DNA of 60,627 nt from Bacteroidales bacterium UBA1756 (GTDB lineage: Bacteria; Bacteroidota; Bacteroidia; Bacteroidales; WCHB1-69): the NCBI GenBank assembly GCA_002314795.1, contig DCHI01000054.1, forward strand, positions 1 to 60,627, given 5' to 3'. Positions 11,395 through 60,605 of this stretch are shown in pieces. The notes beneath the pieces were generated by a model. It saw only the letters and a program-made list of their open reading frames with translations, had not been told where the DNA came from and made no database searches. Position numbers and translations under genes: made by a program. Position 1 is the stretch's first letter. Every line of letters starts with the position of its first letter.

Positions 11395-11410
11395 AACACC
11401 ATCAATTTGT

Positions 11411-13696: not shown

Positions 13697-13697
13697 A

Positions 13698-13740
13698 AAT
13701 TTTCAATTTTCAATTTTCAATTTTCAACTCTCAACTTCCA
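13698..13740. repeat. Heptanucleotide tandem repeat filling the intergenic gap between two FISUMP genes
   Basis: The plus strand reads (ATTTTCA)x4, then ACTCTCA and ACTTCCA. On the coding strand this is TGGAAGT TGAGAGT (TGAAAAT)x4 ending 1 nt before the ATG at 13696. Confidence 0.85.
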
Positions 13741-13741
13741 G

Positions 13742-15112
13742 CTATTCGTCCAAAACGCAACGGACAGAATACCCAGAGCGTGTGTTCGAGTAATAATTAA
13801 TGCAGTCACCTAATGACAAGCTATTGCTATCATACCACAGGAAGTATACAACAATGTGTTCACTACTACATCTGGGAGAGCCTGTGGCACTAGAAAAACA
13901 AGCTCTTGCAGCCCCCTCGGAGTAGTTGTTATAGTTGTAAGTGTATAAACCGGCAGGCATCGCGTTGAATCCAGAGGCATTGTTGGTGGCTTGATTGTTG
14001 CCTGGTGCACAAGCGTTTGAGCTGTTTCTCCAACCTGTGCGTGAGGCAAGTGCTTTTGCAACGCTGCCAGACCCGGTACCACATCGGTAGTGGGGGATGG
14101 AATTGACAAAATCCGATAACTCTTGCCATTCGGCAGCGCTGGGGACGTGCCACCCGTTTGGGCACACACCTTGCACACCGGAAGGATTGGCATTCGTTTG
14201 TTCCGCCCCATTCATCAAAGCAGCCCAGTTGTAAAACAGTCCATATTGTACCACATCCAAGGAAGTATTGCGGTAGTAGTACGGAACGGTTGTGCTAGTA
14301 TTTGAACTGGATGCGATGGCTGTACCGTCGGCGTAGTGGGTGGTGCGGAGGTTCTCGCGCATCCAGCACTGCTCGCCGAGGCGCACTGTGTGATACACGT
14401 TGCCGTCGTAGTCGGTCACGGTGCCGCATTGGGTGGGCCAGTTGCGGGTGATGGTGTTGTTGATGAGACTGCCGTCCTCGCCCGACACCGCGGAGCCGTT
14501 GTCGCCTCGGCACTCGGTCACCACGCAGTTGATGAGGGTGCCGTTGTTGCGGATGTAGGCACCTCCGCCTTCAGCGGTGGTGTTGTCATCGGCAAGTGCA
14601 TCGCAGCCCATAATCACACAATAGCGAGCGGTGCCGCCGTCAATCAGCAAACCACCGCCCTTGGTGGTGGAGAGGCCGTCGCGCACCACACAGCCCTCAA
14701 GGGTACCTGCCACGGTGGCAATGCGGAAAGTATTGTTCCCCTTGACGATACTGCACCAGGTGTCGTCCTGCCAGTGGCTGTTCACACCGGGAAGGTGCCG
14801 CAGAGAGGTGTCCGTTCCAATTGACTCGGGCATAAAGCCGCCCATCACGGTCACGCCTGCCGGGATGTTCAACTCGTCGGTGAGGTTGTAGGTGCCGGCT
14901 TTCACAAAGACGGTGCCGTTGCTGCCCGCGAGCGTCAGCGCGGAGGCAAGGCTCTTTTTGGCAGTGCTCCAAGTGGTGCCGTCACCGTTGTCGTTGGTCA
15001 TCGAGGCGGAGACATAGACATTCGTCTGCGCCTGCGTAAATACACAAAATGCCATCAGCAATGGAATACAAACTATGTTTCTCATCCAGCTGCGGTATGA
15101 AAATGTTTTCAT
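13742..15112 (-). CDS. Secreted beta-helix-head / FISUMP domain protein, paralogue 1 of 3 (first gene of cluster)
   Basis: Signal peptide region ...IPLLMAFCVFTQAQT. The head carries AGTYNLTDELNIPAGVTVMGGF and NNTITRNWPTQCG. The FISUMP signature reads DYDGNVYHTVRLGEQCWMRENL...GWHVPS..EW...SVRCV. Confidence 0.85.
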   Translation of the reverse strand: MKTFSYRSWMRNIVCIPLLMAFCVFTQAQTNVYVSASMTNDNGDGTTWSTAKKSLASALTLAGSNGTVFVKAGTYNLTDELNIPAGVTVMGGFMPESIGTDTSLRHLPGVNSHWQDDTWCSIVKGNNTFRIATVAGTLEGCVVRDGLSTTKGGGLLIDGGTARYCVIMGCDALADDNTTAEGGGAYIRNNGTLINCVVTECRGDNGSAVSGEDGSLINNTITRNWPTQCGTVTDYDGNVYHTVRLGEQCWMRENLRTTHYADGTAIASSSNTSTTVPYYYRNTSLDVVQYGLFYNWAALMNGAEQTNANPSGVQGVCPNGWHVPSAAEWQELSDFVNSIPHYRCGTGSGSVAKALASRTGWRNSSNACAPGNNQATNNASGFNAMPAGLYTYNYNNYSEGAARACFSSATGSPRCSSEHIVVYFLWYDSNSLSLGDCINYYSNTRSGYSVRCVLDE

Positions 15113-33343: not shown

Positions 33344-34144
33344 TTATTTTTTGATGAACTTTTGAGTAGCGGTACCGTTTTCACCGTTCAAACGAACGAA
33401 GTAAACGCCATTGTCCAAATTGCTAACGTTGACTTGCATATTGTCAACAACGCTTGCACTGTAAACAACTTGACCCAAAACGTTAACGATTTGGATGTTG
33501 TCATAACCAGCTGCTTCAACGTTCAAAACGGTAGTAGCGGGATTCGGGAAAATGTTTACGTTAGCTGCAGCATTTTCAGCGATTGCGGTAGTAGGTTCTG
33601 CATTGATTTGAATGTCATCCAACATAATTTGAGCACCATCTTGACCAAGGTAGCTGAATCTGAATTTAACATTAGATTGACCTGCTACATTAGAAATGTC
33701 AGGAGTTGCTTGGAAATACTCGAAGTTTTCATATTCGCCAATGGTTTGGCTGTCCCAGATATCAGAGTAACTAGCACCACCATCTGTACTTACAGCGACA
33801 ACAAGATGATAGTTCGGGTTAGGATCAACGCCCCAGTAATAAGAGAGTGAACACCAAAAAGAAAGCGTAGGATTTGTCATATTGGTGAAGTCGAAAGTAG
33901 GGCTGATTAATTTTTCATCTTGAACATTGAGGTCCTCATCATAGGTGCAATTAGCAAAGGATGATCCAGTATGTGCTGATCCATCAGTTTGATCTGTGCC
34001 AATTCCCCAGGTATAGGAGCTGCTTGATTGAACTTCCCACTGGCCGAAACCATTTTCAAAACCTTCTTCGTAAGGGAAAGAAGCTTGTGCATTTAATGCA
34101 ACAACGGCAAAGCAAATTGCCAAAAGGGATAAAACTTTTCTCAT
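33344..34144 (-). CDS. T9SS type A sorting domain-containing secreted protein (choice-of-anchor-J/MAM-like N-domain)
   Basis: It has a signal peptide. The N-domain begins FPYEEGFENGFGQWEV. The C-terminal ~75 aa (NVNIFPNPATTVLNVEAAGYDNIQIVNVLGQVVYS...LDNGVYFVRLNGENGTATQKFIKK) fit the Por-secretion CTD pattern. Confidence 0.8.
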   Translation of the reverse strand: MRKVLSLLAICFAVVALNAQASFPYEEGFENGFGQWEVQSSSSYTWGIGTDQTDGSAHTGSSFANCTYDEDLNVQDEKLISPTFDFTNMTNPTLSFWCSLSYYWGVDPNPNYHLVVAVSTDGGASYSDIWDSQTIGEYENFEYFQATPDISNVAGQSNVKFRFSYLGQDGAQIMLDDIQINAEPTTAIAENAAANVNIFPNPATTVLNVEAAGYDNIQIVNVLGQVVYSASVVDNMQVNVSNLDNGVYFVRLNGENGTATQKFIKK

Positions 34145-41011: not shown

Positions 41012-42372
41012 ATGCTTTATAGAAAGATTACCAGCAAAATAGAAAGTTACCTGAAGTCAAATAGCAATAAGATGTTGGTGGTAGATGGCGCAAGGCAAAT
41101 CGGGAAGTCTTTTATCATTCGCCATATTGGTTCGCAAATGTTTGCCAATTACATTGAAATCAATATGGAATTGGACAAACAGAAGGACCGCCTGTTTGCA
41201 AATGTACATTCGGTGGAAGATTTTATGTTAGTATTGAGCTCCATTGCTGGAAGCAAGATGAAATCAAAAGAGGACACACTCGTGTTTATCGATGAAATTC
41301 AAGTGTATGACCAATTGCTGACGTTGGCAAAATTTCTTATGCAAGACGGGAGGTTTACCTACATCGCGAGTGGTCTCAGCTGGGAATCGCCCTTCGGACG
41401 ACGCAAAGTATTCCGCTTGGAAGTATCCAAATTGAACGTATGTATCCTCTTGATTTTGAAGAATTTATTATTGCAAATAATGTCGGGAGCTTGGCCATTG
41501 AGGCAATGCGGAATTGTTTTGCCCAACGGTTGCCACTTGAGGATGCTATACATAACCGAATGATGGATCTTTTCCGAAAATATCTTCTCGTAGGTGGAAT
41601 GCCCGACGCTGTCAATACATTTATAGCAGAACACAATCTTGTTTCTGTTAGAAAAGTCCATAGCGATATTCGAAACTTGTATAAGCAAGATGCCGCAAAA
41701 TACGAAAAGAACTTTGATCGGAAACTGCTCATCCAACGTATTTACGACCTTATTCCTTCTAATCTTGAGAATAAGAAAAAACGCGTCGTCGCTAAAAATA
41801 TTGAGGATAAAAAAGGACAACGAATGTCTAATTATAGTGCTGAATTTGAATATCTTATCAGTTCTGGAATCGCACTTGACGTGTTGGCGGTCAGTAATCC
41901 CGTTTATCCTTTGTCCGAAAGTAGTACGAAAAATTTACTGAAGTTGTACATCAATGACATCGGTCTGTTAACAAGCATTCTTTATCGTAATAATATAGCC
42001 CCCATTATGCAGAATGAGTGCAGCGTAAATTTGGGTTCCGTTTACGAAAATGTTGTCGCACAAGAGTTGAAAGCGCACGGATTTGCTCTTCATTACTACG
42101 ACAATAAGAAGCACGGTGAGGTAGATTATCTTGTGGATGATGCCGACGCGACTTCTATTCTTCCTATTGAAGTAAAGTCAGGAAAGGATTATTGGGTTCA
42201 TAGTGCGTTAGATGGTTTCATCAATAATCCAGAATATAAAATTCCTCAAGGAATCGTATTTAGTAACGAACCTCGTGTTTTTCAAAAGAACGGAATCGTT
42301 TATTTCCCGATTTATTACGTAATGTTCTTGCTTCCAAGCAAAAATGATAGAGCCGACTTCATTGAGATATAG
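41012..42372 (+). pseudogene. AAA+ ATPase (AAA_14 + DUF4143 family) interrupted by a 1-nt frameshift near 41373-41380
   Basis: ORF 41012-41563 (Walker A DGARQIGKS, Walker B LVFIDEIQ) and ORF 41440-42372 are in different frames. Reading the second frame back to 41380 gives LGIALRTTQSIPLGSIQIERMYPLDFEEF, which continues the family pattern directly after ...FTYIASG. Confidence 0.7.
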
Positions 42373-47889: not shown

Positions 47890-47990
47890 CGGATAATATT
47901 TGCAAATTTCACTTCGCAGAAGAAATAATTTTATTGCAAGTTGCTGATTTGTAATAATGTAATTGATGTTGACGAAGCAAATAATTTTTG

Positions 47991-47998
47991 TACTTTTG
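47991..47998 (+). promoter_or_regulatory. -7 box TACTTTTG upstream of tRNA-Ser
   Basis: The sequence is ttgTACTTTTGcgcc, 7 nt before the tRNA 5' end. Confidence 0.55.
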
Positions 47999-48004
47999 CG
48001 CCTT

Positions 48005-48091
48005 GGAAAGTTGCCAGAGAGGTCGATCGGGGCAGACTCGAAATCTGTTGAACCCTTCGGGGTTCCGGGGGTTCGAATCCCTCACTTTCCG
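48005..48091 (+). tRNA. tRNA-Ser (anticodon CGA)
   Basis: Hand fold: acceptor GGAAAGT/ACTTTCC, anticodon stem GCAGA/TCTGT, loop CTCGAAA, long variable hairpin (GAACCC-TTCG-GGGTTC), T-arm GGGGG-TTCGAAT-CCCTC, discriminator G. Confidence 0.85.
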
Positions 48092-48097
48092 CAAGGC

Positions 48098-48125
48098 AAA
48101 AGCAGCGTGAAAACGCTGCTTTTTT
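48098..48125 (+). terminator. Intrinsic terminator after tRNA-Ser
   Basis: Stem aaaagcagcg-tgaaaa-cgctgctttt followed by a T-run. Confidence 0.7.
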
Positions 48126-48216
48126 CGTAGGCGAAATGTCGTCGCCAGCTCGCTGGCGAAAGACGGAGCGCCTACGAAAAAAGCCACTGCAAAGCAGTGG
48201 CTTTTGCCTTGCAAGG
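48120..48216. repeat. Two further terminator-like hairpins plus an enclosing inverted repeat (nested palindromes) at the island junction
   Basis: The arms ttttttcgtaggcg (48120-48133) and cgcctacgaaaaaa (48169-48182) enclose the inner stem cgccag/ctggcg. A third hairpin pairs aaaagccactgc (48179-48190) with gcagtggctttt (48194-48205). An outer inverted repeat pairs caaggcaaaag (48092-48102) with cttttgccttg (48201-48211). Confidence 0.7.
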
Positions 48217-49301
48217 GAGCCCGCGGCGGCGCGTGCGCCGTCAAGCCCCAAGTCTTGGAAGATGGGAAGCAGCTTGTCGAAGCCGCCCGCCCCGGAGAAG
48301 CCCGCGAGCACCTTCTTCAGTGCCTCGTTCATGTCGTTCTCAATCAGGTTTGTGAACTGCTCAAGTTCCATTCCCGCGACTTGGGCGAACTCGGCGGGTT
48401 TGGAGATGACCTTCTGTATCAGCTTTTGGAAGGCGGTGGCCGACATCTCCACTTTCTGCATATCTTGGTCAAGGGCGGATGCGAAACCGAGGATCTGGTC
48501 GGCGGCGAGTCCGGCTTGTACGGCGATGCCGCCCAAACGCCCTGTGAAGTTGACCACGTACTGCTCGTTGGCGGTGCTGGTCTTGCCCAGTTCGTTGACG
48601 GCGGAGCCCAAAGACAGAAGCTGCTCTTTGAGGTTCTTGTCTTTGAGCATATCGGTGGACTTTTTGTAAACGTCCACCATCTTGCCGATGGCAAGTGTGG
48701 CATCGTCACCGAGAACGTCTCCCATTGAGACGTTGATGACGTCTGCCGCCTCCACGAACTGCTGGACGAGTTCCTCCGTGTTGATGCCGAGCTTTCCGGC
48801 GATGTAGGCGAGGTTGTTGAGCTGTTCGCGTGAAGTCCGGGTGTCCATCTTCTTGAAACTCTCGTTGAGCTCCTCCACCTGCTCGTGCGTGAAGCCGGTG
48901 GTCTTCATCACGTCGGAGTAGATGTCGTCCAAGGCGGCGAGGTCTGTAGCCACCTGTTTGAGGGTGGACGTGATGTTGTCAAGAGAGGACAGGATTTGTG
49001 TGAGACCGCCGACACCTGTGCCGAACTGCATCACCTTGTCGTACATCTCCTGCCAGCCGGATTTCACCGTGCCGATTTGCCTTGCGTGCTCGTTGAGGAC
49101 TTCGCGCAGTTCGCGAATCTTCTTGGCGTGTGCGATGTACTCGTCGGAACCGATGACCATTCGGTTCTGCTCATTCACAAGGCGGTTCATTTCCGCCCGT
49201 ATCTGCTTGACGGAGGCTTCGACCTCCTTGCCGTTGATGTAGATGGTGACTCTTCGTGTGCTGCTCTTTTCCATAAGCTGATGTTTTGGCAAAGTTGGCA
49301 C
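48213..49301 (-). pseudogene. 5' fragment (~360 codons) of a phage tail tape-measure protein gene (TP901-family-like core), 3'-truncated at the tRNA-Ser flank
   Basis: It has a coiled-coil N-terminus and TMP-type core (LNNLAYIAGKLGINTEELVQQFVEAADVINVSMGDVLGDDATLAIGKMV...GRLGGIAVQAGLAADQILGFASAL...FQDLGLDGARAA). The remaining ~95 codons of ORF 47931-49301 are antisense to the hairpins and the tRNA (AESEGFEPPEP is the antisense T-arm), so they are not real coding sequence. Confidence 0.65.
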
Positions 49302-49372: not shown

Positions 49373-50140
49373 CTATTTTTTTTTCACAAGAATCAATTCT
49401 CCGAATATCAACCTTTTATTGTCCTCATAGCCACAAATTTGATTGTATTCATTGGATGAATATATAGGGATTTTTATGGTATCAGGAAAAATTCCTTTCA
49501 AATTCTGTTCATTACAATCAAATAATTCATTTTCGTAATAAGGTGCACTAAAAATTAATTCAGGCCATATGCCACAGGGTGCATCCCAATAAAAGCAAAC
49601 CCAGTAATCATCATTAGATTTGATAATATTAGAAAAATCATTCAAACACTTCAATGAATCAACAAAATTTATACTGGCATCAATTCCATTGTTTGTTTTT
49701 TTACCGAAATTAAGTGTATCATTGTTTGAACTTATGATGCGTGAAATACCAATTGTAGTTTTAGAAGGGTTATACACTCCGATTAATTGTTGAGCCTTTA
49801 TAGTCTTACTGTTTTTATAAAAGAGACATTTTTTCCCCAGTGTATCAGGCCAATCATACCAATGCCACCATTCAATATATACTTCATTAAAACTTAATTT
49901 CATTTGGAAAATACTGTCCTTGTATTCAAATGGGAGAGCTTCGTAATAACATACAAAAACTCCTTTGCTCTTTGATTCGTCTGATGAATGGGTATGCCAC
50001 CATTTGGCAGTGCCTTTTTGTAATTCAAGCTTTCTGTTAATCGTGTCAAGAATTTGGTCGCGCTCCTTGAATATGTATGCAATGCCAGCAAATGCCGTTA
50101 CTATAACAAAAGTTATTCCTAATCGTTTTATTTTTACCAT
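49373..50140 (-). CDS. Putative cognate immunity protein of the RHS toxin tip (membrane-anchored, 255 aa)
   Basis: The ATG overlaps the RHS stop (ccATGgTAA, 50134-50140). The N-terminal TM helix is LGITFVIVTAFAGIAYIF. The gene is very AT-rich (17/60 G+C in line 49441-49500). I recognise no family; the assignment rests on position only. Confidence 0.55.
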   Translation of the reverse strand: MVKIKRLGITFVIVTAFAGIAYIFKERDQILDTINRKLELQKGTAKWWHTHSSDESKSKGVFVCYYEALPFEYKDSIFQMKLSFNEVYIEWWHWYDWPDTLGKKCLFYKNSKTIKAQQLIGVYNPSKTTIGISRIISSNNDTLNFGKKTNNGIDASINFVDSLKCLNDFSNIIKSNDDYWVCFYWDAPCGIWPELIFSAPYYENELFDCNEQNLKGIFPDTIKIPIYSSNEYNQICGYEDNKRLIFGELILVKKK

Positions 50141-53100
50141 GGTTTTGATGGTTTGATTGTCTTTCCTTGTGGATTTGCTTTCTTAATCTCATTGTAGATA
50201 GTTATAGGAATCGCTGTATTGGACATATGTTTAACAAACATATATACAGGGTCTGATTGTACAACAATTTGTCCTAATTTAGTAAACTGTGGTTCTTGAC
50301 TATCTGATTTTGTTTTGACATTAGCACTATTTAATGCGGACACAACTGCTTGAATACAATTGTTAGAAGTGAAATGGTATTGTTCTCCTAACTTCTGTTT
50401 CATCTGATTTCTAATCATATCATCTTGTTTTGCAGTAGTTGGCAACACATATGCTTCTGTATAATAAGTACCACCTTCCCCATCATGATTTACTGTATTT
50501 TCTTGGTGACTATTTAGAAATTCTTTGACGGAGCCCCAACCTTTATTATCTTTTCCCGCATATCCTATATCATCGCCAGTTCCTGAACTTGAACCTGACG
50601 AGCTTTTGTCATCACCATTCTTTGAATACAGGTACCATCTATTGTCTTTGCCTTGAATAAGTAATGCAGCATGTCCCATTCCTCCGACGCTATTTCCTGC
50701 TAATAGTACAGCACAACTATCCCCTGATGGATCAATTACTCTCACCGGATTGTTCGCACAATACACATATGGACTTAGCGACGGATATTTGTCACTCATC
50801 GGATCCACCGAGAGCCAAATGGAGAGGTTGCTGTTGTAATAGCGGGAACCGAAGTACGAGAAGCCTGTCTCTTCGTCACGTTCTTTGCCAGAGAAGGTGT
50901 AGCGGGATTGGTAGTCTCCGCCAGTAATGCGCTGCGTGATGAAAGGCCCACCCCAAGCATTGTATTGGAAGTGTTCGTAGCCGTGCCCTGCAGTATCAGT
51001 CACCCACGATGCACTACCCAAATGGTCGCTATGTTGCCAATAGGTGGTGTGACGGCTGCTCCAATGGGCGGGAAGTGTGCGGAAGTTATAGAATTGTCCC
51101 GGAGGTATGCTGTCAGGGGTATAGAAATCCACAACTGCCTGTTTTGCAACAAGAGCCGCATTTGACGTGGCGTGGCTGTTGAGTCCAGTGATATTTCCAT
51201 CACCTATACGGCTTGCAAAACGTTCGTTTTCAACAAAGTAATGCTTTGTATAGCCATTGGGGGTAACTACCATATAGGGGGATGCATATAACACGGGGTT
51301 TTGGTAGTACGGAATCTTCATGTAAAAAGAACCATTCACCAGCATAAATATCCGTTCGCCGTAGTTTTTATAGTACCTTTCCCCTGAAGCATCGTAAAAA
51401 TAGCAGGAGCCAAGTGCGGGTTTGGTGACCCCTTTCAGCCTATTCTCCTCGTCCCATTGGAAATAGATGTTGTTGCCTTGCTGGGTCATATTTCCATTGG
51501 CATCCCATTTGTAGGTAACACCGTTCATGAAATTTCCCACCTCAGACAGGGTGTGAGGCTGGGTCGTTGAATTATACGAGTATATTGACTGAGAAATACC
51601 TGGCAAACCTGTCCCGACTTGGGTGGTGGAGGTTCTAATTAAAATGCGTCCGTCCGAAGTATAACTGGTTGACAAAACATTGCTTCGGTCTATGGAGCTG
51701 ACTCTCCCTGTTGTCAAACGGTACAAGCTATCGTATGTATAGGTATAAGTGTATTGTCCTCCGAGGGATGATACGGCGTTGGCCGCATTGTGGATATTGG
51801 TAATATTCCCCACCCCGTCGTAGGTGTACCCGATGTCCTGTAAGAGTGTGTCCCCCACATTCCACAGACGCAGGGTTTTCAGTCGTTGCAGGGTGTCGTA
51901 TGTGTATTGTGTGCGTGTGCCGTTCCCATACCACTGTCCAGATTTCAGTTCAAACTCGTTGTAAGTTGTGTGGTTGATGTAATAGTAGGTGTAGGTGGTG
52001 GATGGTATCGGATCTGGAATGATGGGGCCTACAATGCCACCGCCCCCTATGCCGCCTTTCGGCGATATCCCAGATACAAGCTTCGTCCCATAGACGGTGT
52101 CCAACATTCCACCCGTATTATACCTGTAATGCACCACTTCTCCGTCGGGATAGGTGATGGTCTGCACACGATTCCAGCTGTCGTAAACAAAACTCGTTTT
52201 GAACGAATAGCGGTAGGTTTCGTTGGGCAGCACGAAAGTGCGGTGCTCTTCCGTCACCTCGCCCAATTTTCCGTACTTGTACGCACGGAAGCCGGAAGCG
52301 TCTTCCAATAATGCGATTCTTCCGCGCTGGTTGTTGCCCGCGGTGCTATCGCCGTAAGTGTACCGCACATTGTTCTGCGGATTAATGGGATAGATGATGG
52401 AGTCCAGACGGTTGTAGCTGTAATAGTAATTGACGGTCTTGTTTGCATTGGCCAGCACCTGTGTGGTATGCTTGACCATATTCCCTGCGCCGTCATATAG
52501 ATAGGTGTCCGTACCCGCATCAGGATGCACGCGCTGAACCATTCTCCCAAGCATATCGTAGGTGTAGGTGGTGGAGTATCCGCACGGGTCGGTACTTTGC
52601 AGCAACTGCCCCAGCGGGTCATATATGAAGGTGGTTACGGCACCGTGCGGAGCGATGGCCTTCACCTGCTGTTTCCTTGTCCCTGTCAGAGTGGAAACGG
52701 CAATGCCGTTGGGGTCAGTGGTGGTCGTGCTGAAATATGTCCTGCCGCTGTGTGTGCCGAAGCCGTATGAAGTCCTTGTGCTGTCCAGAGTGGGCAGTAC
52801 CACCTTCAATGGGCGGTCGAGGACATCGTAAGTGGTGGATGTGAGGGTGTACGGGACATAATTCGGGTTATAGCCCATATTCTCAAGCGGTTCAACTACC
52901 GGATGGTACTGCGCAACGGTACGACCGAAGCAGTCATACACCACCTTGCCGCTCACAATATGTTTTGGGATGTCCTCCACCTCGGCGTCCTTCTTGGTCT
53001 GGAGCAGCCGCCCCAGCCCGTCACAATAAATGATGGTCTGTATGAGGTCAGTGTCGTGCTGTATGTCGTAGTGTGAGGTGACGGCGTATGAATAGGTCGG

Positions 53101-56100
53101 AGCAGGAGTATTATTTCCGTAGCCTCTTGGATGGTACTCCATTTGGATAGTATATGGGACGGACGCACCTTCGTTGGGACCTTTCAAGCGTACCAGTCTT
53201 CCAGCGGCATCATACCCGTAGCTCATAGTGTTGCCGTTCAAGTCGGTAGTGGTAAGCGGTTTCCCGAAATGAGGATGGTAGGTGGCCGTGGAGGTGTAGC
53301 CGAGCGCATTGTGGACGGTCACGGGGTAGGTGTGCAGTTGTGTATCGTAAGTGTATCGGGTCCACATCCTGTCTGAAAGGGATTCGTAGGGGAGGCTCAT
53401 CCGCTCCACATTCCCGTACATGTCATAGTTATACTCAAACAGCTCGTAGCTGCTATTGTCGGAATAGCGCCGCAGGGAGGTCATGTCCCCGTATGTGTCG
53501 TATGTGCTTGAACGATGCTGCAGGGTTGCGCCGTGATAGTCCTTTACAACAATGTCTGTGGGAAGTGCAATCATATTCCGTTCCATCCCTGCCGCATACT
53601 GGATGTCGGCCACGAAGTATTCGTCCCTGTGCGAGGTGTCACCCCAGTTGATGTAACGGATGACGTTCCGGCGGCTGTCGTATTGTCGGGTAATTGCCGT
53701 GGTGATTTGTGGAGACTCCTGCCCTTCGTAGTAGTTCCTGAACTCAGCCTCAAACCCCGGGTATACCACGGAGGGGCAGTCGGCATCACCGACAGTGTCG
53801 CCTGTCACCATGTCAACCATGGTGGCGAAATAGAACGTCTCAACATATTTGTTCCCAGCAGCATCATACACGCAGTCGTATGTTTTCTTGCCCCTCTTGT
53901 TGAAGTGGCGGTTGTCGAAGCATTCCGCCGTGTATCTGTACACGGAGCCGTCGGGATTGTGCTGCCATGTGGTCACGGAGTCGTAGCCGTAACTGATGCG
54001 CTCGTAGCGGTTGTAGTACGGGTTGTGGTAGGAGAATGTCGTGCGGGCTGTATCGCCGCCAGCATGACTGAGGGAATCACTCACCACCGTTTCCGCAAGG
54101 TTCCACTGCCTTTGGGGGCTGTTGAAGGAGGCGGCGGAAAGTTCATAGTCAAGCTCCACCGTGCTCCCCGTGAAATTGGTGACCTTTTTCAGCAGGTTGG
54201 TCTTGCCCGAACGGTTGTACCAGACCTTCATCACATTCTCAGAGGGCGACATGACATAATCAGGACAGCCGTCACCATTGACATCCACAATCTGAACTCT
54301 GTCCTTGCTGAAAGAGCGGTTGACCGGGGAGGTCTGAACGCCTATGAAGAACTTGAAGGAGCCGAGAAAGGTGAAACCTGCCGTGACACCAATGTTAGCA
54401 GACTCGCTGTAGGAGGTGCTGTGGGAAATGAAATTGATTCCCGGTATGAATACACCCTGTGACCACTGACCGTTGCCGAGGTTGTATCTTACGTTAATGC
54501 CGGAACCTGTCTCTTCCACATAGTCAGGGAGTCCGTCACTGTTGAAATCGCAGAGCATTCCTGTGGTGTTGTTCTCCGAGTTGTTCACACCCAGTCCGCC
54601 GCTGATGCTGGCCTGTGCGATGTTGACAGCCCCGCCCAGTGTCATTCCCGAATTGTCACTTTCCCCGCTACGGATGCCAGGCAGGCGCCAATCCTCAAAA
54701 GGCAGGAAGCCATAGCCGACATTCAGTGCGGCCCTGCCTGCCGAATTGAGCTTGTCGGGAAGGCCGTCACCATTAATGTCCATGAAGGTGTAGGAGGTCT
54801 GGTCTGTGCCGCCGCCGTGACTGGCTCCGATACTGCCCTGCCCGTCAAAACTTATTTTCGCGCTCTTCTGGTTGTTGGACGACTGGCGCGTGGGCAGTGA
54901 GTAGCTTGCCCCGAAAGTACTTCCCTCTGACGAGGTGACGGAGGACGAGATTTTCTGCACATTGGCGTCAAGTGTCTGAACATCTCCGATTCCGCCCCAC
55001 GGGGTGCTGTACTGGACGTATGCCTCACCGACGAAGTCAGGATAACGGTCGCCGTTCAAGTCCATATAATCCGTCAGGATGGTGTTCTCTCCGTTGGATT
55101 CGGACAGCCCCACTGAGATGGGAACAATGGGGATGTCGAGTGAGAGGGAGTAGTTGCCCAGCTTGGAGCGGTTCTGCTTGCGGATGGTCTTCACCATGCC
55201 GTAAGTCGGGTCCGGCTGGGGAATCGGAGAATCATAGTCCTCCATATCGGCGGTCTCCTCCACCGTGGCATATTGGGGAAGGCGGGTGTTGGAGATGGTG
55301 GTGCGGTCGATGAACGTGATGTTGCCGTATCCATTCCAAGACTGGTGCCGGCAGTCGGGGAGCATCTCCACCCAGCAGGTGTTGGAGGCCAGCGGATTGA
55401 ACATATTATTGGCGCTGAATGAGTTCTCAAGATCATCCTGTGAGGTTGAGGCGTCTATAGAGGGGGTCTCATATATGGAGGCTGAATCTGTGACAGCAGT
55501 GGACTGCAGGTGGTCCGCATTGAGCAGCTCTATATGTATGGGTTCTGTGACGGGATAATCGTGGTTGTTGTAGGCGAACTGCCCCCATCCCCTGTACAAG
55601 GGGCCGAAGAGGATGTGTGCGATGGAGTCCACAGCCGTGTGCCTATAGTTGTCAATGGTGAGGTTCACGGAGGGGTAAACCGTCAGCGTGTCGCTGATGG
55701 GGTCAGTGATGGTGGTCCCAACAGGGTGGTAAATGTATGAGAACTCCACCTTTGGGGCAATTTCGATTTCCCCGTAGCTCACGCTGTCAGGGATGACTGC
55801 AATGAAGTGCATTTCGCAGGCCGAATCCACTGCAAGCCCTGAAAACAATTGCACACTATGATGCGGTCCCGGAAGAAGGAAGACCGTGTCCCCAAGAACA
55901 TTACGGTTGCTGTCAAGACAGAACAAAAGCACCGTGTCGCTGACATTACCGATACTCACATCGGCTGTCGCGGTCGCTGTGCCGTATGTGTGTGTCTTGT
56001 AGTAGTCCTTTCCGCAAACAAAGAAGTCCTCCTTCGAGTCGTAGATGTCCCCCCTCATACCGTACCTGTCACGGGCGGTGTCCGTATCGTAGATGATGCG

Positions 56101-58950
56101 CTGGTGCCACAGGGAGCGGTCAAAGGAGCGGTTCCCGCGCGACTGCTGGCGGAAGAACAGGATGTCGCCCTCCTGAAGCGCCAGCCTGAGGGAGATGCTG
56201 TCCTTGGTATAGACACTGTCGGGGACGGTCATGTCATACAGCTCCGCCGTATCGGCTGAATGGATCCTGTAAGACAGGGCGTGGTTTCCCCTGTTCCTCT
56301 GGATGGTGTATCTCACACCGTTGGCGTATTGGGACTGCCGCCTGTTGGCGCTGGTGTCCTCTATCAGCTGGAAGACGGACTGCAGTGTGGCCTCACCCGA
56401 CCTCGGGACAATCCATACCCTGACCGCGTCAAGATCTGGGTCAAGGATTTCCGGCTCGCAGCGGATGACCTTCCTGTAAAGGTAAAGCACAGAATGGGGC
56501 TCATCATAGTGATAATCGTACTCTCCAGTGTTGAGAAGGCTGTCATAGTAAGCGAAGTCAGGAGAATCGTCCTTCAGGTTACGGATGATGGTGTCAAGTA
56601 CCCAGTCAATCCCGCAGGCGATGCTGTCGCTCACCTCGCCGTCGAAGATGATGCCGCCGCAGGGCGTGGTGGAGTTCACCGTCACGCTCTCGGGATTTAC
56701 GTCTCCCGAATTTTCTGCCCGTATGGTGTAAAACGGCTTGAACTTGACAGAATCGCCGTTTTCCGTAACATTGAACAGCACGCCTGACTCTGTTATCAGG
56801 TCGGGAAGCCCGTCCGCATTGACATCGGCGAAATACACGCTGGTTGTGGAGGTCGTGGTAGGCCAAGAACCGCTCAACGAACATCCTGCCGAGGCCTGAA
56901 GTCCCCAAGTGATGGTGCGGCTGCTTTCCTTCAGAAAATCAGTAACACCGTCTATACGTTGTTTGGGACCATATGAGAAGTGTCCGTTGCTGCCGGGTAT
57001 CTGCCTGCAAAAGAACATTGTATCCTTGTTTTTGAAAACCTTGTCTGCGAGGCCGTCCCCGTCAAGGTCAATCAGGGTGAGCGCCCCTTCGGATTCGGAC
57101 TGGCTGTAGTCGAAATTCCCGCCCACTGAAATGGTGGAGAGGGCGACATTCCCGCCAAGGCCAACCCCCACGTTCCCGCCGAGGCTCCAGCTCCTGCCTT
57201 TGGTCGCGCCCAGTGCGGTGGCTTTCCCTTCATTATCATTGAACGCACTGGCAATGAAATTCGAGTGCACACCATCATCCTGCAAATGTATTTCCGTCAT
57301 AGGGGCGAACAGAGAATCCTGTTCGGGGGCGTCGAAGTAGTCGAAGTGGGTCAGAGTCCCGTTCCAGCCGTCGCTGCCTGTCAGTTCTGATATGGGATCG
57401 CCGCAACTGTAGCCTGTCTTCAGGTCTCCGTCCACCCTGACCACATCCGTCAGACGGGTCTTGTAGTTGCTCTGATAGCCGTTCTCATATCCGAAATAGT
57501 AGCTTCTGATGGTATCAGTCTCATAGGTGATGTGGACACTGCAAAGGGTTGAGGCGGTGACTTGCTTGAAGCCGTATTGCGCGTTGATGCTGATGTCAGG
57601 ACGCCCCTCATATCTTTCAAATAAAATCTTGTACTTCCCCGAATCAGTATCAAAATTGGTGTAACGGATTTCTTTCAAGTATATCTGTCTTCCATAGTTC
57701 GATGAGTTGGAAGGCATTCCCGTCCCGATCTCTACCTTATAGTTGTACAGCACTGTGTTCTTGTGCGGGTCGCTTATTTCCGTCAGAGCCCAGTAGGCAA
57801 TGTTACCCGAATTGTCACGCAGCACACTGTTGTTGTCAACACCCTCGCCGTTATGGCTTTTGCCATAATAGTAGGTGATGCCGTTGCGGTCAACTGCCTC
57901 CCACCAGTAGTTCTGCGGTGTGGAGCCGTGTCGGATGATGCTGTCAAAAGCCTCGTCCGTTCTCGGATAAAAGCGGGTGTCGGAGGTTCGTTGCCGCCAT
58001 TGGTTTGTCCTGTGCGGCATGGGAAGATGGTTGCCCGCCGCGTCCTTCTCAACGAGCTGTTCCCCTCCATACACGTACACTTCACTTTCTTTCTGGTAGT
58101 CGTATCTCGGCACGCCCCAGCGGGTCTCCACGGTGATGGAGGGGACGGAGATGTCCCAACCCACACCAAGCCAGCCGTTGCCGCCGCCGCTGCTGTAGGT
58201 CAGGGCGAGGTTGGGCTGCATTCCCTGCCGCCCCGCCGGAATCTCCAGCTGGTAGCTCAGGTTGGCGGTGCCGCTGTTGTTGGCAGTCGGCGCCTGTATC
58301 AGCTGCAAGCCCTCCAGCGGGTTGGCCGCTTCCAGCTCCTTGATGCTGGTCGGCGTGAAGGCCGATGTTTCCGGCATCTCAGGCGTCTTGATGACGGCGT
58401 TGATGAAGTCGGTGAAATGGTTCACCTTGGAATAGACCAGCGCATCCGCTGTGCACACGGAGTCACGTTCGATGGCCATCCACCGCCCGCTGCGCACGTC
58501 GTAGTAGTAGGTCACGATGTCGTCGGGTGTGAACCCTGCGGGCAGCAGTGTGGAGTCGTAGGGCAGCACGATGGAGATGTCTCCGTTGAACACCATCCCG
58601 TCGGGCAGCATGCGGTAGCCCGCCGCGTAGTCGGTCACGTTCACCATACCCTGGTCAAGCGGCGGGAGCGTTGCCGCCGTTAGCTCGGTCACGGAAAGCT
58701 CCGCTGGGAACGGGCGTGTGCCCTCGTCCCCCATAAGCCGCACTTTTCCGATAGTGTAGCTGAAGGCGGGCGTGAGGCTGACGGGCAGGGAGGTGTCCCC
58801 CACAGACTTAGGGGTGGGGGTGATGGTGGGTCTGGTCTCGTCAGGACACAGGCCGCCCGTCACAGGCGCGACGCTGTAGCCGCTTGCGAATGAGTATGTG
58901 CCGCCTGAAGTGTGGGAGGCGGGCTGGTAGGTGGCAATGGCTGCAGCCAA
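50134..58950 (-). CDS. SpvB/TcaC-N + FG-GAP beta-propeller + RHS/YD-repeat shell + RHS core + C-terminal toxin (TcB-TcC-like fusion, 2938+ aa)
   Basis: The SpvB motif is LSYQLEIPAGRQGMQPNLALTYSSGGGNGWLGVGWDISVPSITVETRWGVPRY (about 58099-58260). Six FG-GAP-type calcium motifs are present: DLDGDGLADKV, DVNADGLPDLI, DLNGDRYPDFV, DINGDGLPDKL, DFNSDGLPDYV and DVNGDGCPDYV. There are many YD repeats (YTYDMLGRMVQ, YLYDGAGNMV, YGYDAAGRLV). The RHS core is GSRYYNSNLSIWLSVDP...NNPVRVIDPSGD. The true start probably lies upstream of the TTG at 58950 (see findings). Confidence 0.9.
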   Translation of the reverse strand: MAAAIATYQPASHTSGGTYSFASGYSVAPVTGGLCPDETRPTITPTPKSVGDTSLPVSLTPAFSYTIGKVRLMGDEGTRPFPAELSVTELTAATLPPLDQGMVNVTDYAAGYRMLPDGMVFNGDISIVLPYDSTLLPAGFTPDDIVTYYYDVRSGRWMAIERDSVCTADALVYSKVNHFTDFINAVIKTPEMPETSAFTPTSIKELEAANPLEGLQLIQAPTANNSGTANLSYQLEIPAGRQGMQPNLALTYSSGGGNGWLGVGWDISVPSITVETRWGVPRYDYQKESEVYVYGGEQLVEKDAAGNHLPMPHRTNQWRQRTSDTRFYPRTDEAFDSIIRHGSTPQNYWWEAVDRNGITYYYGKSHNGEGVDNNSVLRDNSGNIAYWALTEISDPHKNTVLYNYKVEIGTGMPSNSSNYGRQIYLKEIRYTNFDTDSGKYKILFERYEGRPDISINAQYGFKQVTASTLCSVHITYETDTIRSYYFGYENGYQSNYKTRLTDVVRVDGDLKTGYSCGDPISELTGSDGWNGTLTHFDYFDAPEQDSLFAPMTEIHLQDDGVHSNFIASAFNDNEGKATALGATKGRSWSLGGNVGVGLGGNVALSTISVGGNFDYSQSESEGALTLIDLDGDGLADKVFKNKDTMFFCRQIPGSNGHFSYGPKQRIDGVTDFLKESSRTITWGLQASAGCSLSGSWPTTTSTTSVYFADVNADGLPDLITESGVLFNVTENGDSVKFKPFYTIRAENSGDVNPESVTVNSTTPCGGIIFDGEVSDSIACGIDWVLDTIIRNLKDDSPDFAYYDSLLNTGEYDYHYDEPHSVLYLYRKVIRCEPEILDPDLDAVRVWIVPRSGEATLQSVFQLIEDTSANRRQSQYANGVRYTIQRNRGNHALSYRIHSADTAELYDMTVPDSVYTKDSISLRLALQEGDILFFRQQSRGNRSFDRSLWHQRIIYDTDTARDRYGMRGDIYDSKEDFFVCGKDYYKTHTYGTATATADVSIGNVSDTVLLFCLDSNRNVLGDTVFLLPGPHHSVQLFSGLAVDSACEMHFIAVIPDSVSYGEIEIAPKVEFSYIYHPVGTTITDPISDTLTVYPSVNLTIDNYRHTAVDSIAHILFGPLYRGWGQFAYNNHDYPVTEPIHIELLNADHLQSTAVTDSASIYETPSIDASTSQDDLENSFSANNMFNPLASNTCWVEMLPDCRHQSWNGYGNITFIDRTTISNTRLPQYATVEETADMEDYDSPIPQPDPTYGMVKTIRKQNRSKLGNYSLSLDIPIVPISVGLSESNGENTILTDYMDLNGDRYPDFVGEAYVQYSTPWGGIGDVQTLDANVQKISSSVTSSEGSTFGASYSLPTRQSSNNQKSAKISFDGQGSIGASHGGGTDQTSYTFMDINGDGLPDKLNSAGRAALNVGYGFLPFEDWRLPGIRSGESDNSGMTLGGAVNIAQASISGGLGVNNSENNTTGMLCDFNSDGLPDYVEETGSGINVRYNLGNGQWSQGVFIPGINFISHSTSYSESANIGVTAGFTFLGSFKFFIGVQTSPVNRSFSKDRVQIVDVNGDGCPDYVMSPSENVMKVWYNRSGKTNLLKKVTNFTGSTVELDYELSAASFNSPQRQWNLAETVVSDSLSHAGGDTARTTFSYHNPYYNRYERISYGYDSVTTWQHNPDGSVYRYTAECFDNRHFNKRGKKTYDCVYDAAGNKYVETFYFATMVDMVTGDTVGDADCPSVVYPGFEAEFRNYYEGQESPQITTAITRQYDSRRNVIRYINWGDTSHRDEYFVADIQYAAGMERNMIALPTDIVVKDYHGATLQHRSSTYDTYGDMTSLRRYSDNSSYELFEYNYDMYGNVERMSLPYESLSDRMWTRYTYDTQLHTYPVTVHNALGYTSTATYHPHFGKPLTTTDLNGNTMSYGYDAAGRLVRLKGPNEGASVPYTIQMEYHPRGYGNNTPAPTYSYAVTSHYDIQHDTDLIQTIIYCDGLGRLLQTKKDAEVEDIPKHIVSGKVVYDCFGRTVAQYHPVVEPLENMGYNPNYVPYTLTSTTYDVLDRPLKVVLPTLDSTRTSYGFGTHSGRTYFSTTTTDPNGIAVSTLTGTRKQQVKAIAPHGAVTTFIYDPLGQLLQSTDPCGYSTTYTYDMLGRMVQRVHPDAGTDTYLYDGAGNMVKHTTQVLANANKTVNYYYSYNRLDSIIYPINPQNNVRYTYGDSTAGNNQRGRIALLEDASGFRAYKYGKLGEVTEEHRTFVLPNETYRYSFKTSFVYDSWNRVQTITYPDGEVVHYRYNTGGMLDTVYGTKLVSGISPKGGIGGGGIVGPIIPDPIPSTTYTYYYINHTTYNEFELKSGQWYGNGTRTQYTYDTLQRLKTLRLWNVGDTLLQDIGYTYDGVGNITNIHNAANAVSSLGGQYTYTYTYDSLYRLTTGRVSSIDRSNVLSTSYTSDGRILIRTSTTQVGTGLPGISQSIYSYNSTTQPHTLSEVGNFMNGVTYKWDANGNMTQQGNNIYFQWDEENRLKGVTKPALGSCYFYDASGERYYKNYGERIFMLVNGSFYMKIPYYQNPVLYASPYMVVTPNGYTKHYFVENERFASRIGDGNITGLNSHATSNAALVAKQAVVDFYTPDSIPPGQFYNFRTLPAHWSSRHTTYWQHSDHLGSASWVTDTAGHGYEHFQYNAWGGPFITQRITGGDYQSRYTFSGKERDEETGFSYFGSRYYNSNLSIWLSVDPMSDKYPSLSPYVYCANNPVRVIDPSGDSCAVLLAGNSVGGMGHAALLIQGKDNRWYLYSKNGDDKSSSGSSSGTGDDIGYAGKDNKGWGSVKEFLNSHQENTVNHDGEGGTYYTEAYVLPTTAKQDDMIRNQMKQKLGEQYHFTSNNCIQAVVSALNSANVKTKSDSQEPQFTKLGQIVVQSDPVYMFVKHMSNTAIPITIYNEIKKANPQGKTIKPSKPW
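50137..50718 (-). other. C-terminal polymorphic toxin domain (194 aa) of the RHS protein, downstream of the DPSGD core boundary
   Basis: The core ends ...YVYCANNPVRVIDPSGD (DPSGD = 50719-50733). The tail begins SCAVLLAGNSVGGMGHAALLIQ. G+C drops here: 20/60 in line 50281-50340 versus 32/60 in line 50881-50940. Confidence 0.75.
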
Positions 58951-59043
58951 GAAAACGCCGACTGCAAGGAGCGTGAGAAAGTGAAAGTTTTTTATGGTGT
59001 TATGGTTTTAGTTGATTGAATGTGAATCACATATTAATGAAAT

Positions 59044-60564
59044 TTACTGTACAAGCATTTTGACGAAGTTGCGTTCCGCATTGCTGACAATCTCAATGAG
59101 GTACTGCCCCTTCGCGGTGAGCGTCCCCTCGATGCGGTGCATGGTGTCGCCGCCCCGCTGGTAGGTGCGCACCGTCCTGCCGTCGGCGGTATAGACGTGT
59201 ACGGTGAGCGGTGTGGCTTCTGGGTACTGCGCCTCCAGCACGAAATGTCCGCTGTTGGGGTTCGGGTAGAGGGCGTATTGCCCGTTGGAACCGTTGCCAG
59301 CCGCACCGTTGTCCCCGCCGTTCTCCGACACTGCGCCACGCTCCCCGATCTGTGAGAAATCAAGGATGTCAAGTGCGGCAAAGCAGAAACGGTCGCAGCC
59401 GCTGCCGTCCGTGTCCCAGTAGATGTCGCTGAAGGTGAGCGTTCTGTCGGCAGTGTCAATCTCTGCCGGAGTGAAAATCTCCAGGTCAGAGTAGCGGTAC
59501 TCGCCCGAGCCGCTGCGGTCAACCAGCAGGGCATAGCGGTGCAGGCTGTCAGCCCACTGCGAGGCGATAACTCTCATAGTGAAAGGCTTTTGTGGGATGC
59601 CCGTCCCCGTCACCTTGGCGACCCCGTCACCGTAGCGGTTCAGGGTCTGGTCGTCCTCCAAGTAGAGTTCCGATGCGGTGCTGAAGGCGGATTCTGCGCT
59701 GCCCACCATCAGGAACTCCCTGTCGGCAAGGGTGCTGCCGTGCAGAATATTGTCCGCCGCGATGCTGTCAAGACCGATGGTAAGCAGCCCGTCGGCGGTG
59801 CGGCTCTGCCGCTGGTGGAGCCCGAAGCGGTCGTCACGGCCGATGCCGATGACGCTTCCCGAGAACTGCCCTAAAGAGTCGAGCGGCCACGTCACCGTGC
59901 CGTCAGACGAGAGGTAGGAGGTCTCACGCAGCGTGACCCCGTACTTCACGGCCAGATAGCTGCACCACTGGTAGAGGGCGGTGTCGGAGAACTCTTCACC
60001 GCAGGGCAGCACGACCAGCTCCGCCACCATCCCGGTGAAAGCGGAGGAGTCGGTGGCACCAACCATGCCGCTGCAATGAAGCGTGTCGGCCATCCTGCGC
60101 CTGCGCCACAGCTGCGTGAGGCTGTTGACGACGGTGCAGCGGCTGTTCTCGTCACCATACAATATTGTGCTGTTGCTGTTCACGATCCGTCGCGTGGTCA
60201 GGGCGAGGGTGTGGGCGCTGTCGGCTTGGAACGACCACAGCGGCATTTCCTCGCGCATCGCCGTGTCGGCCTGATAGGCGATGATGACGCTGTTCGCCTC
60301 CTCAGTCACCTCAAGTGGAGGGACGGAGAGCGCGGTGCCGTCGAAGCGGAAGGCGGGGTTGAAGTTCAGCAGCGTGTCGGCACTTTTGACCGAGTCGGTG
60401 GTGAAGGCGGCGTCATAGCCGTTGCCGGAGATGTCACGCCACACTGGGGTGTCGGTTCCTGTGCTGTCGGCACGGAGCCAGATGACGGGTTGGGAGACTT
60501 GCGCCACGGAGACAGCGCAGTACAAAAATGAAAATACGAATAAGGCAATGATTTTTTGTTTCAT
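59044..60564 (-). CDS. Secreted LamG/concanavalin-like domain protein with T9SS type A C-terminal sorting domain
   Basis: Signal peptide MKQKIIALFVFSFLYCAVSVAQ. The LamG-like start is VIWLRADS...WRDISGNGYDA...NFNPAFRFDG. The C-terminus YALYPNPNSGHFVLEAQYPEATPLTVHVYTADGRTV...GQYLIEIVSNAERNFVKMLVQ fits the Por CTD pattern. Confidence 0.75.
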   Translation of the reverse strand: MKQKIIALFVFSFLYCAVSVAQVSQPVIWLRADSTGTDTPVWRDISGNGYDAAFTTDSVKSADTLLNFNPAFRFDGTALSVPPLEVTEEANSVIIAYQADTAMREEMPLWSFQADSAHTLALTTRRIVNSNSTILYGDENSRCTVVNSLTQLWRRRRMADTLHCSGMVGATDSSAFTGMVAELVVLPCGEEFSDTALYQWCSYLAVKYGVTLRETSYLSSDGTVTWPLDSLGQFSGSVIGIGRDDRFGLHQRQSRTADGLLTIGLDSIAADNILHGSTLADREFLMVGSAESAFSTASELYLEDDQTLNRYGDGVAKVTGTGIPQKPFTMRVIASQWADSLHRYALLVDRSGSGEYRYSDLEIFTPAEIDTADRTLTFSDIYWDTDGSGCDRFCFAALDILDFSQIGERGAVSENGGDNGAAGNGSNGQYALYPNPNSGHFVLEAQYPEATPLTVHVYTADGRTVRTYQRGGDTMHRIEGTLTAKGQYLIEIVSNAERNFVKMLVQ

Positions 60565-60597
60565 AGCGTTTGGGATTTAGGGTTAAAAATTTCGCTG

Positions 60598-60605
60598 CAA
60601 ATTTA
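60598..60605 (-). promoter_or_regulatory. -7 box TAAATTTG upstream of the LamG-T9SS / RHS / immunity operon
   Basis: The reverse complement reads aatTAAATTTGcagcg, 34 nt upstream of the ATG at 60564. Confidence 0.45.

Follow-up and report, generated by a model that had tools for sequence, protein, structure and literature searches.

The "TcdB/TcaC-type" class of polymorphic toxins, delineated by Zhang, de Souza, Anantharaman, Iyer and Aravind (2012; PMC3482391), combines a signal peptide, an SpvB domain, an integrin-like propeller, RHS repeats and a variable C-terminal toxin with an immunity gene. Members were reported from Bacteroidetes, Proteobacteria, Actinobacteria and Chloroflexi, and a ZU5 autopeptidase is often present at the N-terminus of its SpvB-RHS toxins; the class was drawn from architecture alone, and no outer-membrane route or partner gene was described for it. 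In Apibacter, most rhs genes have SpvB/TcdB N-termini and adjoin genes with the T9SS (type IX secretion system) type A sorting domain, and it was proposed that they are probably linked to the T9SS and take part in antagonism between bacteria (Steele and Moran, 2021; PMC8125069); that report concerns one genus, leaves the family of the neighbor unnamed and contains no mechanism or test, and a 2026 preprint (10.64898/2026.03.23.713742) still cites the association as untested. In "Ca. Ornithobacterium hominis", an rhs gene of more than 9 kb bears signatures of SpvB and TcdB and has displaced tips (PMC6421346); the TANFOR toxins adjoin genes for T9SS cargo bearing the C-terminal sorting domain (CTD), T9SS export having been hypothesized for them (Jana, Salomon and Bosis, 2020; PMC7073777). 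Across the literature searched, the exit of Sec-exported Rhs cocoons that lack TcA and a role of the T9SS in bacterial warfare are discussed as hypotheses only (PMC8125069, PMC7073777, 10.64898/2026.03.23.713742), and the name DUF8202 appears in no paper. Here we describe a locus from the Bacteroidales bacterium UBA1756 (contig DCHI01000054.1, 60,627 nucleotides [nt]; this whole stretch is hereinafter the window), in which a giant Rhs gene is preceded by a gene coding for a CTD-bearing DUF8202 protein and followed by a candidate immunity gene, and report that the pairing of DUF8202 with the giant is near-obligate in Bacteroidota.

The original prediction, made from the letters of the window without database searches, had proposed three minus-strand genes here, the smallest overlapping its neighbor by 7 nt, and the calls of open reading frames (ORFs) agree. 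These close-packed ORFs lie within positions 49373–60605 and code for a 506-amino-acid (aa) DUF8202 protein (59044–60564), the giant (50134–58950; 2938 aa counted from a TTG codon) and a 255-aa protein (49373–50140), the start of whose gene overlaps the stop of the giant (CCATGGTAA). All coordinates given below for the three genes are likewise on the minus strand. Pfam, NCBIfam and motif searches also recovered in the giant the order of parts that had been read from its letters: SpvB, six FG-GAP motifs, a YD/RHS shell, a core running to DPSGD and a variable tip. The SpvB domain (aa 225–440; 57631–58278; PF03534, E 6e-31) matches the TcdB2 (TcdB2-TccC3), YenB and SpvB structures with E-values down to 5e-25. 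It is followed by an FG-GAP β-propeller (aa ~600–1575; 54226–57153) with six D-x-[DN]-x-D-G-x-x-D motifs at aa 628, 709, 1297, 1391, 1468 and 1556, by TcdB_toxin_midN (aa 1538–1682; 53905–54339; E 3e-15), and by the RHS/YD-repeat shell (aa 1683–2662, including DUF6443 at 1953–2042; 50965–53904), which is recognized by the RHS_repeat and TIGR01643 profiles and matches PDB chains of T6SS (type VI secretion system) Rhs proteins and teneurin-like chains. The RHS-associated core TIGR03696 (aa 2663–2743; 50719–50964) ends in DPSGD (aa 2740–2744), the expected site of C-terminal autoproteolysis. Among the profiles that the original prediction had put forward for a check of the giant, those for SpvB, FG-GAP, TcdB midN, RHS and TIGR03696 gave matches, and TcdB_toxin_midC went undetected at E≤0.01. 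The NCBIfam scan returned only TIGR03696, the SpvB model and TIGR01643, with no TANFOR domain (TIGR02542); neither Pfam nor NCBIfam found a PAAR, VgrG or clade domain on the giant; and the PF18962 CTD was present in none of the 120 giant homologs listed. The reading frame extends over 8.8 kb with zero stops or frameshifts.

Three features of the giant are absent from the original prediction. The first canonical start codon, the TTG at 58948–58950, falls within the hydrophobic core of a signal-peptide-like N-terminus (IKNFHFLTLLAVGVFLAAAIA; 58933–58995) that opens in frame with ATA at 58993–58995, the position at which close relatives have an ATG (MKSFHIFTLLAAGLFLAAAIA). Three independent assemblies all have this ATA, which rules out a sequencing error: translation begins there, or this allele of the giant has lost its start. 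A start at the ATA would explain the gap of "48–90 nt" that had been given between the first two genes. Essentially all homologous giants open with an N-terminus of the signal-peptide or the lipoprotein type. The second feature is a conserved N-domain (aa ~85–185; 58396–58698), retained in all relatives, other phyla included, and ending in the invariant HFTDFIN (HFT at 58411–58419), of which the H, F, D and N are invariant in the alignment. Pfam at E≤10, run on the first 240 aa of the giant, gave nothing for this domain, and a profile of it found no useful PDB match; across 12 members ZU5 was the top Pfam match in only one, at a weak E of 0.075. The ZU5 autopeptidase of the published class occupies the same position (PMC3482391), and we regard the N-domain as probably a ZU5-type autoproteolytic domain. 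Many homologous giants (L015, L020, L024, L038, L076 and L087) begin with lipoprotein-type signal peptides (..L-x-x-C), and the N-terminal anchor together with the HFTD domain may form a general "tether then release" device. The third is an insertion of ~550 aa (aa ~731–1280; 55111–56760) that splits the propeller between FG-GAP motifs 2 and 3 and has no Pfam match at E≤10; it is kept in the family, yet is the fastest-evolving part of the conserved body (median identity 28%; detectable in 26 of 57 loci).

From its predicted domains, the giant is a TcB-TcC-like cocoon protein; it has a Sec-type signal peptide and a variable tip, and an immunity gene is inherited together with it. By this architecture it belongs to the TcdB/TcaC-type Rhs polymorphic toxins, having the signal peptide, SpvB domain, propeller, RHS repeats and polymorphic tip of the class and the immunity gene downstream. 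The delivery routes that the original prediction listed for such cocoons were incomplete in that they omitted this published class (PMC3482391). With the BC cocoons of the toxin complexes (Tc; TcdB2-TccC3, YenB-YenC; PDB 4O9X, 6H6E, 4IGL) the giant shares SpvB, the FG-GAP propeller, TcdB_midN, the RHS shell and an aspartyl-protease core that frees the tip inside. It differs from them in its Sec signal peptide, ZU5-like N-domain, propeller insertion and immunity gene, in the undetected midC and in that no TcA was found at the locus; the presence of the immunity gene points to a bacterial rather than an insect target. The T6SS Rhs effectors (RhsA, Tse15, TseI) are similar in their RHS cocoon, their encapsulated and autoproteolytically released tip and their adjacent immunity gene, but the giant is devoid of PAAR, VgrG or clade domains, and its signal peptide implies a periplasmic intermediate. 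The TANFOR toxins resemble it in being Bacteroidota-specific, in having a signal peptide and a C-terminal toxin, hence no CTD, and in adjoining genes for CTD cargo, though their delivery domain is TANFOR instead of SpvB/RHS and their neighbors are SprB-repeat proteins. Closest in context are the Apibacter genes, likewise SpvB/TcdB-type rhs genes next to a gene with a T9SS type A sorting domain and the subject of the same T9SS hypothesis; in a relative from the same Weeksellaceae, Chryseobacterium (L171), the neighbor of the giant is a DUF8202 protein with a CTD. The idea of a T9SS pairing is thus sound but not new. What is new here is the DUF8202 identity of the partner, the phylum-wide counts, the alternatives outside Bacteroidota, the ZU5-like domain, the propeller insertion and a three-block mosaic.

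The 506-aa partner is assigned to PF26628 (DUF8202) in precomputed family annotations. Its sequence reads as a signal peptide (aa 1–21, cleavage between ..SVA and QVSQ), followed in an AlphaFold2 model (built from 30 homologs; predicted local distance difference test [pLDDT] 85.9) by two β-sandwich domains (aa ~28–190 and ~225–400), a G/N-rich disordered linker and a T9SS type A CTD (aa 429–506; CTD at 59047–59280). The CTD, which the original prediction had recognized, is supported by hidden Markov models (HMMs), with Por_Secre_tail/TIGR04183 at aa 432–505 (TIGR04183 30.1 bits, cut-off 23; PF18962 28.1 bits, cut-off 27), as well as by the superposition of the modeled domain on the NucA CTD in the T9SS translocon complex (8glk_D, TMt 0.80). 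With a Sec signal peptide and a type A sorting domain, the protein is a predicted T9SS type A cargo; two additional T9SS CTD proteins are encoded in the window, suggesting that the organism uses this system. The LamG identity earlier proposed for the partner was not borne out: Pfam gave no Laminin_G match even at E≤10, and the family is DUF8202. Fold searches with the N-terminal domains retrieved only diffuse jelly-roll/concanavalin A (ConA)-like lectin matches with template-modeling (TM) scores of 0.2–0.3 (the trans-sialidase lectin domain, the PilC lectin module, an arabinanase carbohydrate-binding module and NTNH), for which "lectin-like jelly roll" would be a fair label. DUF8202 is among the fastest-changing parts of the module (median identity 28%).

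We surveyed the pairing in both directions. For the giant-based census, an alignment of the first 1300 aa of the giant was scanned over one genome per species, and 80 loci were kept of at least 387 confirmed relatives (at least 599 pattern matches); partners were then detected with a DUF8202 profile against the six-frame ORFs of these loci. Of the 61 Bacteroidota giants with sufficient DNA before them, 57 have a same-strand DUF8202 gene directly upstream, the gap having a median of 40 nt and mostly measuring 1–130 nt. The paired loci come from Bacteroidales, Marinilabiliales, Flavobacteriales, Cytophagales, Chitinophagales, Sphingobacteriales and Saprospiraceae. The DUF8202-based census took standalone DUF8202 genes on metagenome contigs that continue for 900 nt or more downstream of the gene, and the giant follows in 46 of 47; 59 of the 60 complete standalone DUF8202 proteins align to the CTD end. 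The pairing also appears at individual loci of 85%, 29% and 26% identity, and Chryseobacterium has it as well. Thus, synteny with a CTD protein, which the original prediction had set beforehand as a test on which it could fail, is found in both directions of search and is maintained from 93% down to ~24% identity in at least six Bacteroidota orders, which would be hard to maintain in the absence of a functional link. In a family count over 121 ORFs lying upstream of 34 paired loci, TcA and T6SS families never occur twice, the commonest families being phage integrases (6) and further Por_Secre_tail proteins (5), with Peptidase_S8 in 2; the phage-type integrases lie upstream of the homologous modules in 6 of the 34 loci. 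In the Chryseobacterium locus (L171:3764-7992), the gene immediately preceding DUF8202 codes for a CTD-bearing S8 peptidase, and four further loci (L061, L074, L038, L068) have an additional large same-strand gene in that position, the product of which in L038 weakly matches the CTD part of the DUF8202 profile.

Outside Bacteroidota, the profile search of six-frame ORFs found DUF8202 in none of 12 giant-carrying loci (Electrothrix, Geotalea, Geobacteraceae, Parabeggiatoa, Rhodobacteraceae, an alphaproteobacterium, Marinobacter, two Streptomyces, Nonomuraea, Micromonosporaceae and Rubrobacter). In the Rhodobacteraceae (L054:810-7785) and Marinobacter (L071:167-7569) loci, a set of genes upstream of the giant, on its strand, resembles those of the type II secretion system (T2SS) and of the mannose-sensitive hemagglutinin (MSHA) pilus and codes for a PilN-like protein, a 750-aa secretin containing tetratricopeptide (TPR) repeats, and a pseudopilin that bears an N-methylation motif; the set is headed in Marinobacter by an MshE-type ATPase, a position that in the Rhodobacteraceae locus is the locus edge, outside the scan. 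This arrangement suggests a dedicated secretin route for the toxin family in these two loci. In Geotalea (L049:6763-8154), a Geobacteraceae genome (L075:6712-8097) and a metagenome contig (L170:8583-9962), a gene for a lipoprotein of ~460 aa is directly upstream of the giant; the three products are 59–75% identical to each other and have no Pfam family. An N-terminal extension of ~600 aa is common to the proteobacterial giants. We considered the lipoproteins and the extensions as DUF8202 in disguise and rejected both, hhalign and hmmsearch being negative. The raw ORF lists of the actinobacterial loci, which were not compared with one another or scanned with Pfam, contain no conserved same-strand upstream gene. 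Hence the accessory upstream of the giant differs by lineage: a T9SS-sorted protein in Bacteroidota, a secretin set or a lipoprotein in some diderm Proteobacteria, and nothing obvious in monoderm loci. Of the arguments for the partner serving outer-membrane passage or display, this one is the strongest, although it is indirect.

The module is a mosaic of three blocks. Relative to the two closest loci among the matches listed, L026 (from a yak-rumen Bacteroidales metagenome-assembled genome) and L004, the block comprising DUF8202 and the first ~285 aa of the giant (58095–60564) is 88–100% identical and has a G+C content (GC) of 61–62%. At its boundary the identity drops abruptly to 20–60% for the cocoon (50965–58095; 51–55% GC), and the tip and immunity gene (49373–50718; 32–36% GC) are unrelated to those of the two loci; the surrounding chromosome has 44% GC. 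Nearly the whole cocoon, beyond the tip alone, seems to be exchangeable on a constant unit formed by the partner and the N-terminus of the giant. The mosaic fits an interaction of DUF8202 with the giant's N-terminal region, as the original prediction had proposed.

The toxin tip (194 aa; 50137–50718; 36% GC) follows DPSGD and has no Pfam family. Its 26 homologs are all short orphan Rhs C-terminal ORFs, equally without a Pfam family, that conserve C7, H21, an S-K-N-G-D-D motif and N-N-C126 (tip numbering). Pfam at E≤10 gave only weak RTE1 and Lnb_N matches, and comparison with PDB sequences gave nothing useful. An AlphaFold2 model of moderate quality (pLDDT 70) was compared with the PDB using Foldseek, the top list consisting mostly of papain-like Cys enzymes (3kw0 at TM 0.38, RavD, NTAQ1, Josephin and Cif); on the make-up of this list and the H...NNC motifs, we propose with low confidence that the tip is a His-then-Cys papain-like enzyme. 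The adjacent 255-aa protein (32% GC) has one N-terminal membrane-spanning segment (KIKR-LGITFVIVTAFAGIAYIF-KERD). An immunity-like role had been suggested earlier from the gene overlap, and homologs of the two genes are indeed kept together: an orphan array elsewhere holds a tip with 56% identity to this one and then, overlapping it by 7 nt as here, a gene whose 257-aa product has 49% identity (E 1e-81) to the 255-aa protein, so that the pair travels as a cassette. The tips themselves vary among the giant homologs, and orphan tip arrays exist. We accordingly view the 255-aa protein as a candidate membrane-anchored, periplasm-facing immunity protein; its predicted orientation suggests the periplasm of Gram-negative targets as the site of toxin action.

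The sole TAnnTTTG match in the stretch upstream of the 506-aa gene is TAAATTTG (60598–60605), 34 nt before the ATG, which corresponds to the Bacteroidota −7 consensus. The Bacteroidetes-type promoter box of the original prediction is therefore there as a motif match only, TAnnTTTG occurring 54 times in the whole window against 40 expected; a scan with the sigma-70 consensus was uninformative, as is that consensus for Bacteroidota. Since motif and terminator scans found no minus-strand TAnnTTTG box or terminator-like site between the genes, co-transcription of all three is plausible. A second such box inside the tip-coding region (50235–50242; a motif match only), ~95 nt before the start of the immunity gene, is possibly the own promoter of that gene, which would make its expression independent of the toxin. 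Directly downstream of the immunity gene, a truncated phage tape-measure-like ORF (47931–49301, minus strand; PhageMin_Tail, E 2e-13; 56% GC) runs into a tRNA-Ser(cga) gene (48005–48092, plus strand), the two together resembling the remains of a prophage or island at a tRNA. On the other side, 63 nt separate the start of the 506-aa gene from the end of the window. An identical 506-aa gene is present on three independent contigs (L001, L002, L003), which end 9, 7 and 76 nt past that point, and the extra stretch of L003 beyond 60627 is AT-rich non-coding DNA only. The condition set by the original prediction, that a TcA, VgrG/PAAR or T6SS locus beyond 60627 would speak against it, was therefore addressed through the homologous loci.

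Taking these observations together, we give roughly even odds to the reading that the module is an antibacterial TcdB/TcaC-type Rhs toxin system suited to the Bacteroidota envelope, with DUF8202 as its T9SS-dependent export or display adaptor. The mechanism that we infer involves DUF8202–giant binding, T9SS dependence, cleavage between HF and T, periplasmic action and antibacterial use. In it, both proteins would be exported by Sec, and the cocoon would fold in the periplasm around its own tip, which would be cut free inside at DPSGD. The ZU5-like N-domain would cut between HF and T (aa 179/180), releasing the cocoon from its signal or lipid anchor, and DUF8202 would bind the giant, most likely in its N-terminal ~285 aa. 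The CTD of DUF8202 would then supply in trans the signal for T9SS passage across the outer membrane and/or for surface attachment, a trans-acting CTD being needed because the C-terminus of the giant itself is the toxin. Upon contact with a competitor, the Cys/His papain-like tip would reach the periplasm of the target, sister cells being protected by the membrane-anchored, periplasm-facing immunity protein. A more specific form of this, which we advance tentatively and hold to be somewhat doubtful, is that DUF8202 acts in trans as a carrier of the T9SS signal: in the periplasm it would bind the N-terminal region of the CTD-less ~320-kDa cocoon and then either bring it across by way of the T9SS or pass it on to that system. 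If true, this would be the first "hitch-hiking" T9SS substrate and the first defined outer-membrane route for Sec-exported Rhs cocoons lacking TcA; the toxin family would in that case have enlisted a dedicated T2SS-like secretin system in certain Proteobacteria and, in Geobacteraceae-type genomes, a partner lipoprotein.

Several observations weigh against the adaptor reading. Judging from the dimensions of SprA and of Tc cocoons, a folded ~320-kDa cocoon may exceed the width of the T9SS translocon, making "piggyback" export uncertain. Four Bacteroidota giants have no partner nearby (L019, L031, L032, L044), and one standalone DUF8202 gene has no giant (L093). The DUF8202 domain is also found inside unrelated huge proteins: in 12 further loci it occurs without the CTD part within proteins of unrelated kinds that range from 800 to over 5000 aa. 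Plain physical linkage of neighboring DNA could give the same mosaic picture as a conserved interaction. The ZU5 assignment is without HMM confirmation, the fold assignment of the tip is weak (Foldseek gave no significant PDB match, E>0.25), and expression of this giant may be lowered or lost through its ATA codon. L146, L148, L151, L155, L164 and others have DUF8202 domains, often in multiple copies and without a CTD, in proteins of 2000 to more than 5000 aa with no Rhs giant adjoining, so that the domain has a broader use beyond the Rhs pairing.

The main rival also starts from the partner, which the original prediction had pictured, by inference, as a surface anchor or receptor binder. DUF8202 could be a target-recognition subunit only, that is, a T9SS-displayed lectin-like binder of competitor glycans that replaces the receptor role of TcA, the giant leaving by vesicles, lysis or another exporter. 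The jelly-roll/ConA-like lectin similarity of both N-terminal domains, the 28% median identity of DUF8202, as expected of a fast-evolving receptor binder, and the presence of the domain in large multi-domain surface-type proteins all fit such a role. Yet the relatives in other phyla would need targeting too and never have DUF8202, two of them having secretion genes in its place, and the block co-conserved with DUF8202 is the export-proximal N-terminus of the giant and not the variable insertion; on balance, we deem recognition as the sole function unlikely. A looser relationship, in which the two genes share a transcript while their products, a T9SS cargo and a Sec-exported Rhs toxin, work independently and do not touch, would be in keeping with the other CTD proteins encoded upstream in some loci (e.g., the S8 peptidase with a CTD). 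An adjacency held from 93% to ~24% identity over at least six orders, mostly with gaps of 1–130 nt, makes this very unlikely in our view.

The other two alternatives concern the giant. Its copy in the window, beside a prophage remnant and a tRNA-Ser, might be an allele in decay or already silent, with only the immunity gene of use to the cell: ATA replaces ATG in three assemblies, the truncated tape-measure ORF and the tRNA-Ser follow directly downstream, and a TAnnTTTG box precedes the immunity gene. Against this, ATA is an allowed, if rare, bacterial start (table 11), and an 8.8-kb frame free of stops and frameshifts argues for recent or continuing selection, so that we regard decay as quite unlikely. 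Finally, the sharing of SpvB, the propeller, TcdB_midN and the RHS core with TcdB2-TccC3 and YenB raises the question of a canonical anti-eukaryotic Tc BC subunit with its TcA elsewhere, or of a T6SS Rhs effector with its VgrG/PAAR elsewhere, and the genome outside the window could hold either. However, the Sec signal peptide directs the giant to the periplasm, which is incompatible with cytoplasmic T6SS loading and unlike Tc B/C subunits, while the adjacent immunity cassette and the orphan tip arrays point to bacterial targets. The absence of TcA and the T6SS from view, remarked in the original prediction, holds for the family scans of the 34 largest ORFs of the window, as it does for recurring families upstream of the 34 paired loci. 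Given the signal peptide and these negatives, we consider T6SS delivery or a distant TcA highly improbable.

Irrespective of the precise route, DUF8202 is a specific conserved partner in the one phylum with the T9SS, secretion genes standing in its place in two proteobacterial loci. The pairing renders the adaptor mechanism genetically testable in culturable carriers such as Flavobacterium, Chryseobacterium, Tenacibaculum, Niastella, Runella and Pontibacter. Rumen and gut Bacteroidales commonly carry the module, which may shape competition in these communities.

The remainder of the window is ordinary Bacteroidota chromosome, with genes for YidC, CTP synthase, RecO, LolA, FKBP and a nucleoside transporter. 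Near its beginning, a 3272-aa protein (248–15112, minus strand) combines IgGFc_binding, PKD and a CHU_C type B T9SS domain; it is preceded by three paralogous genes with Fib_succ_major domains (443, 761 and 456 aa), the block having 52% GC, above the chromosomal background. A 266-aa MAM-domain protein (33344–34144, minus strand) has a strong T9SS type A CTD (E 4e-15). Closer to the module, an AAA_14/DUF4143 ATPase (41012–42372, plus strand) is present as two overlapping ORFs of 183 and 310 aa, probably a frameshifted gene.

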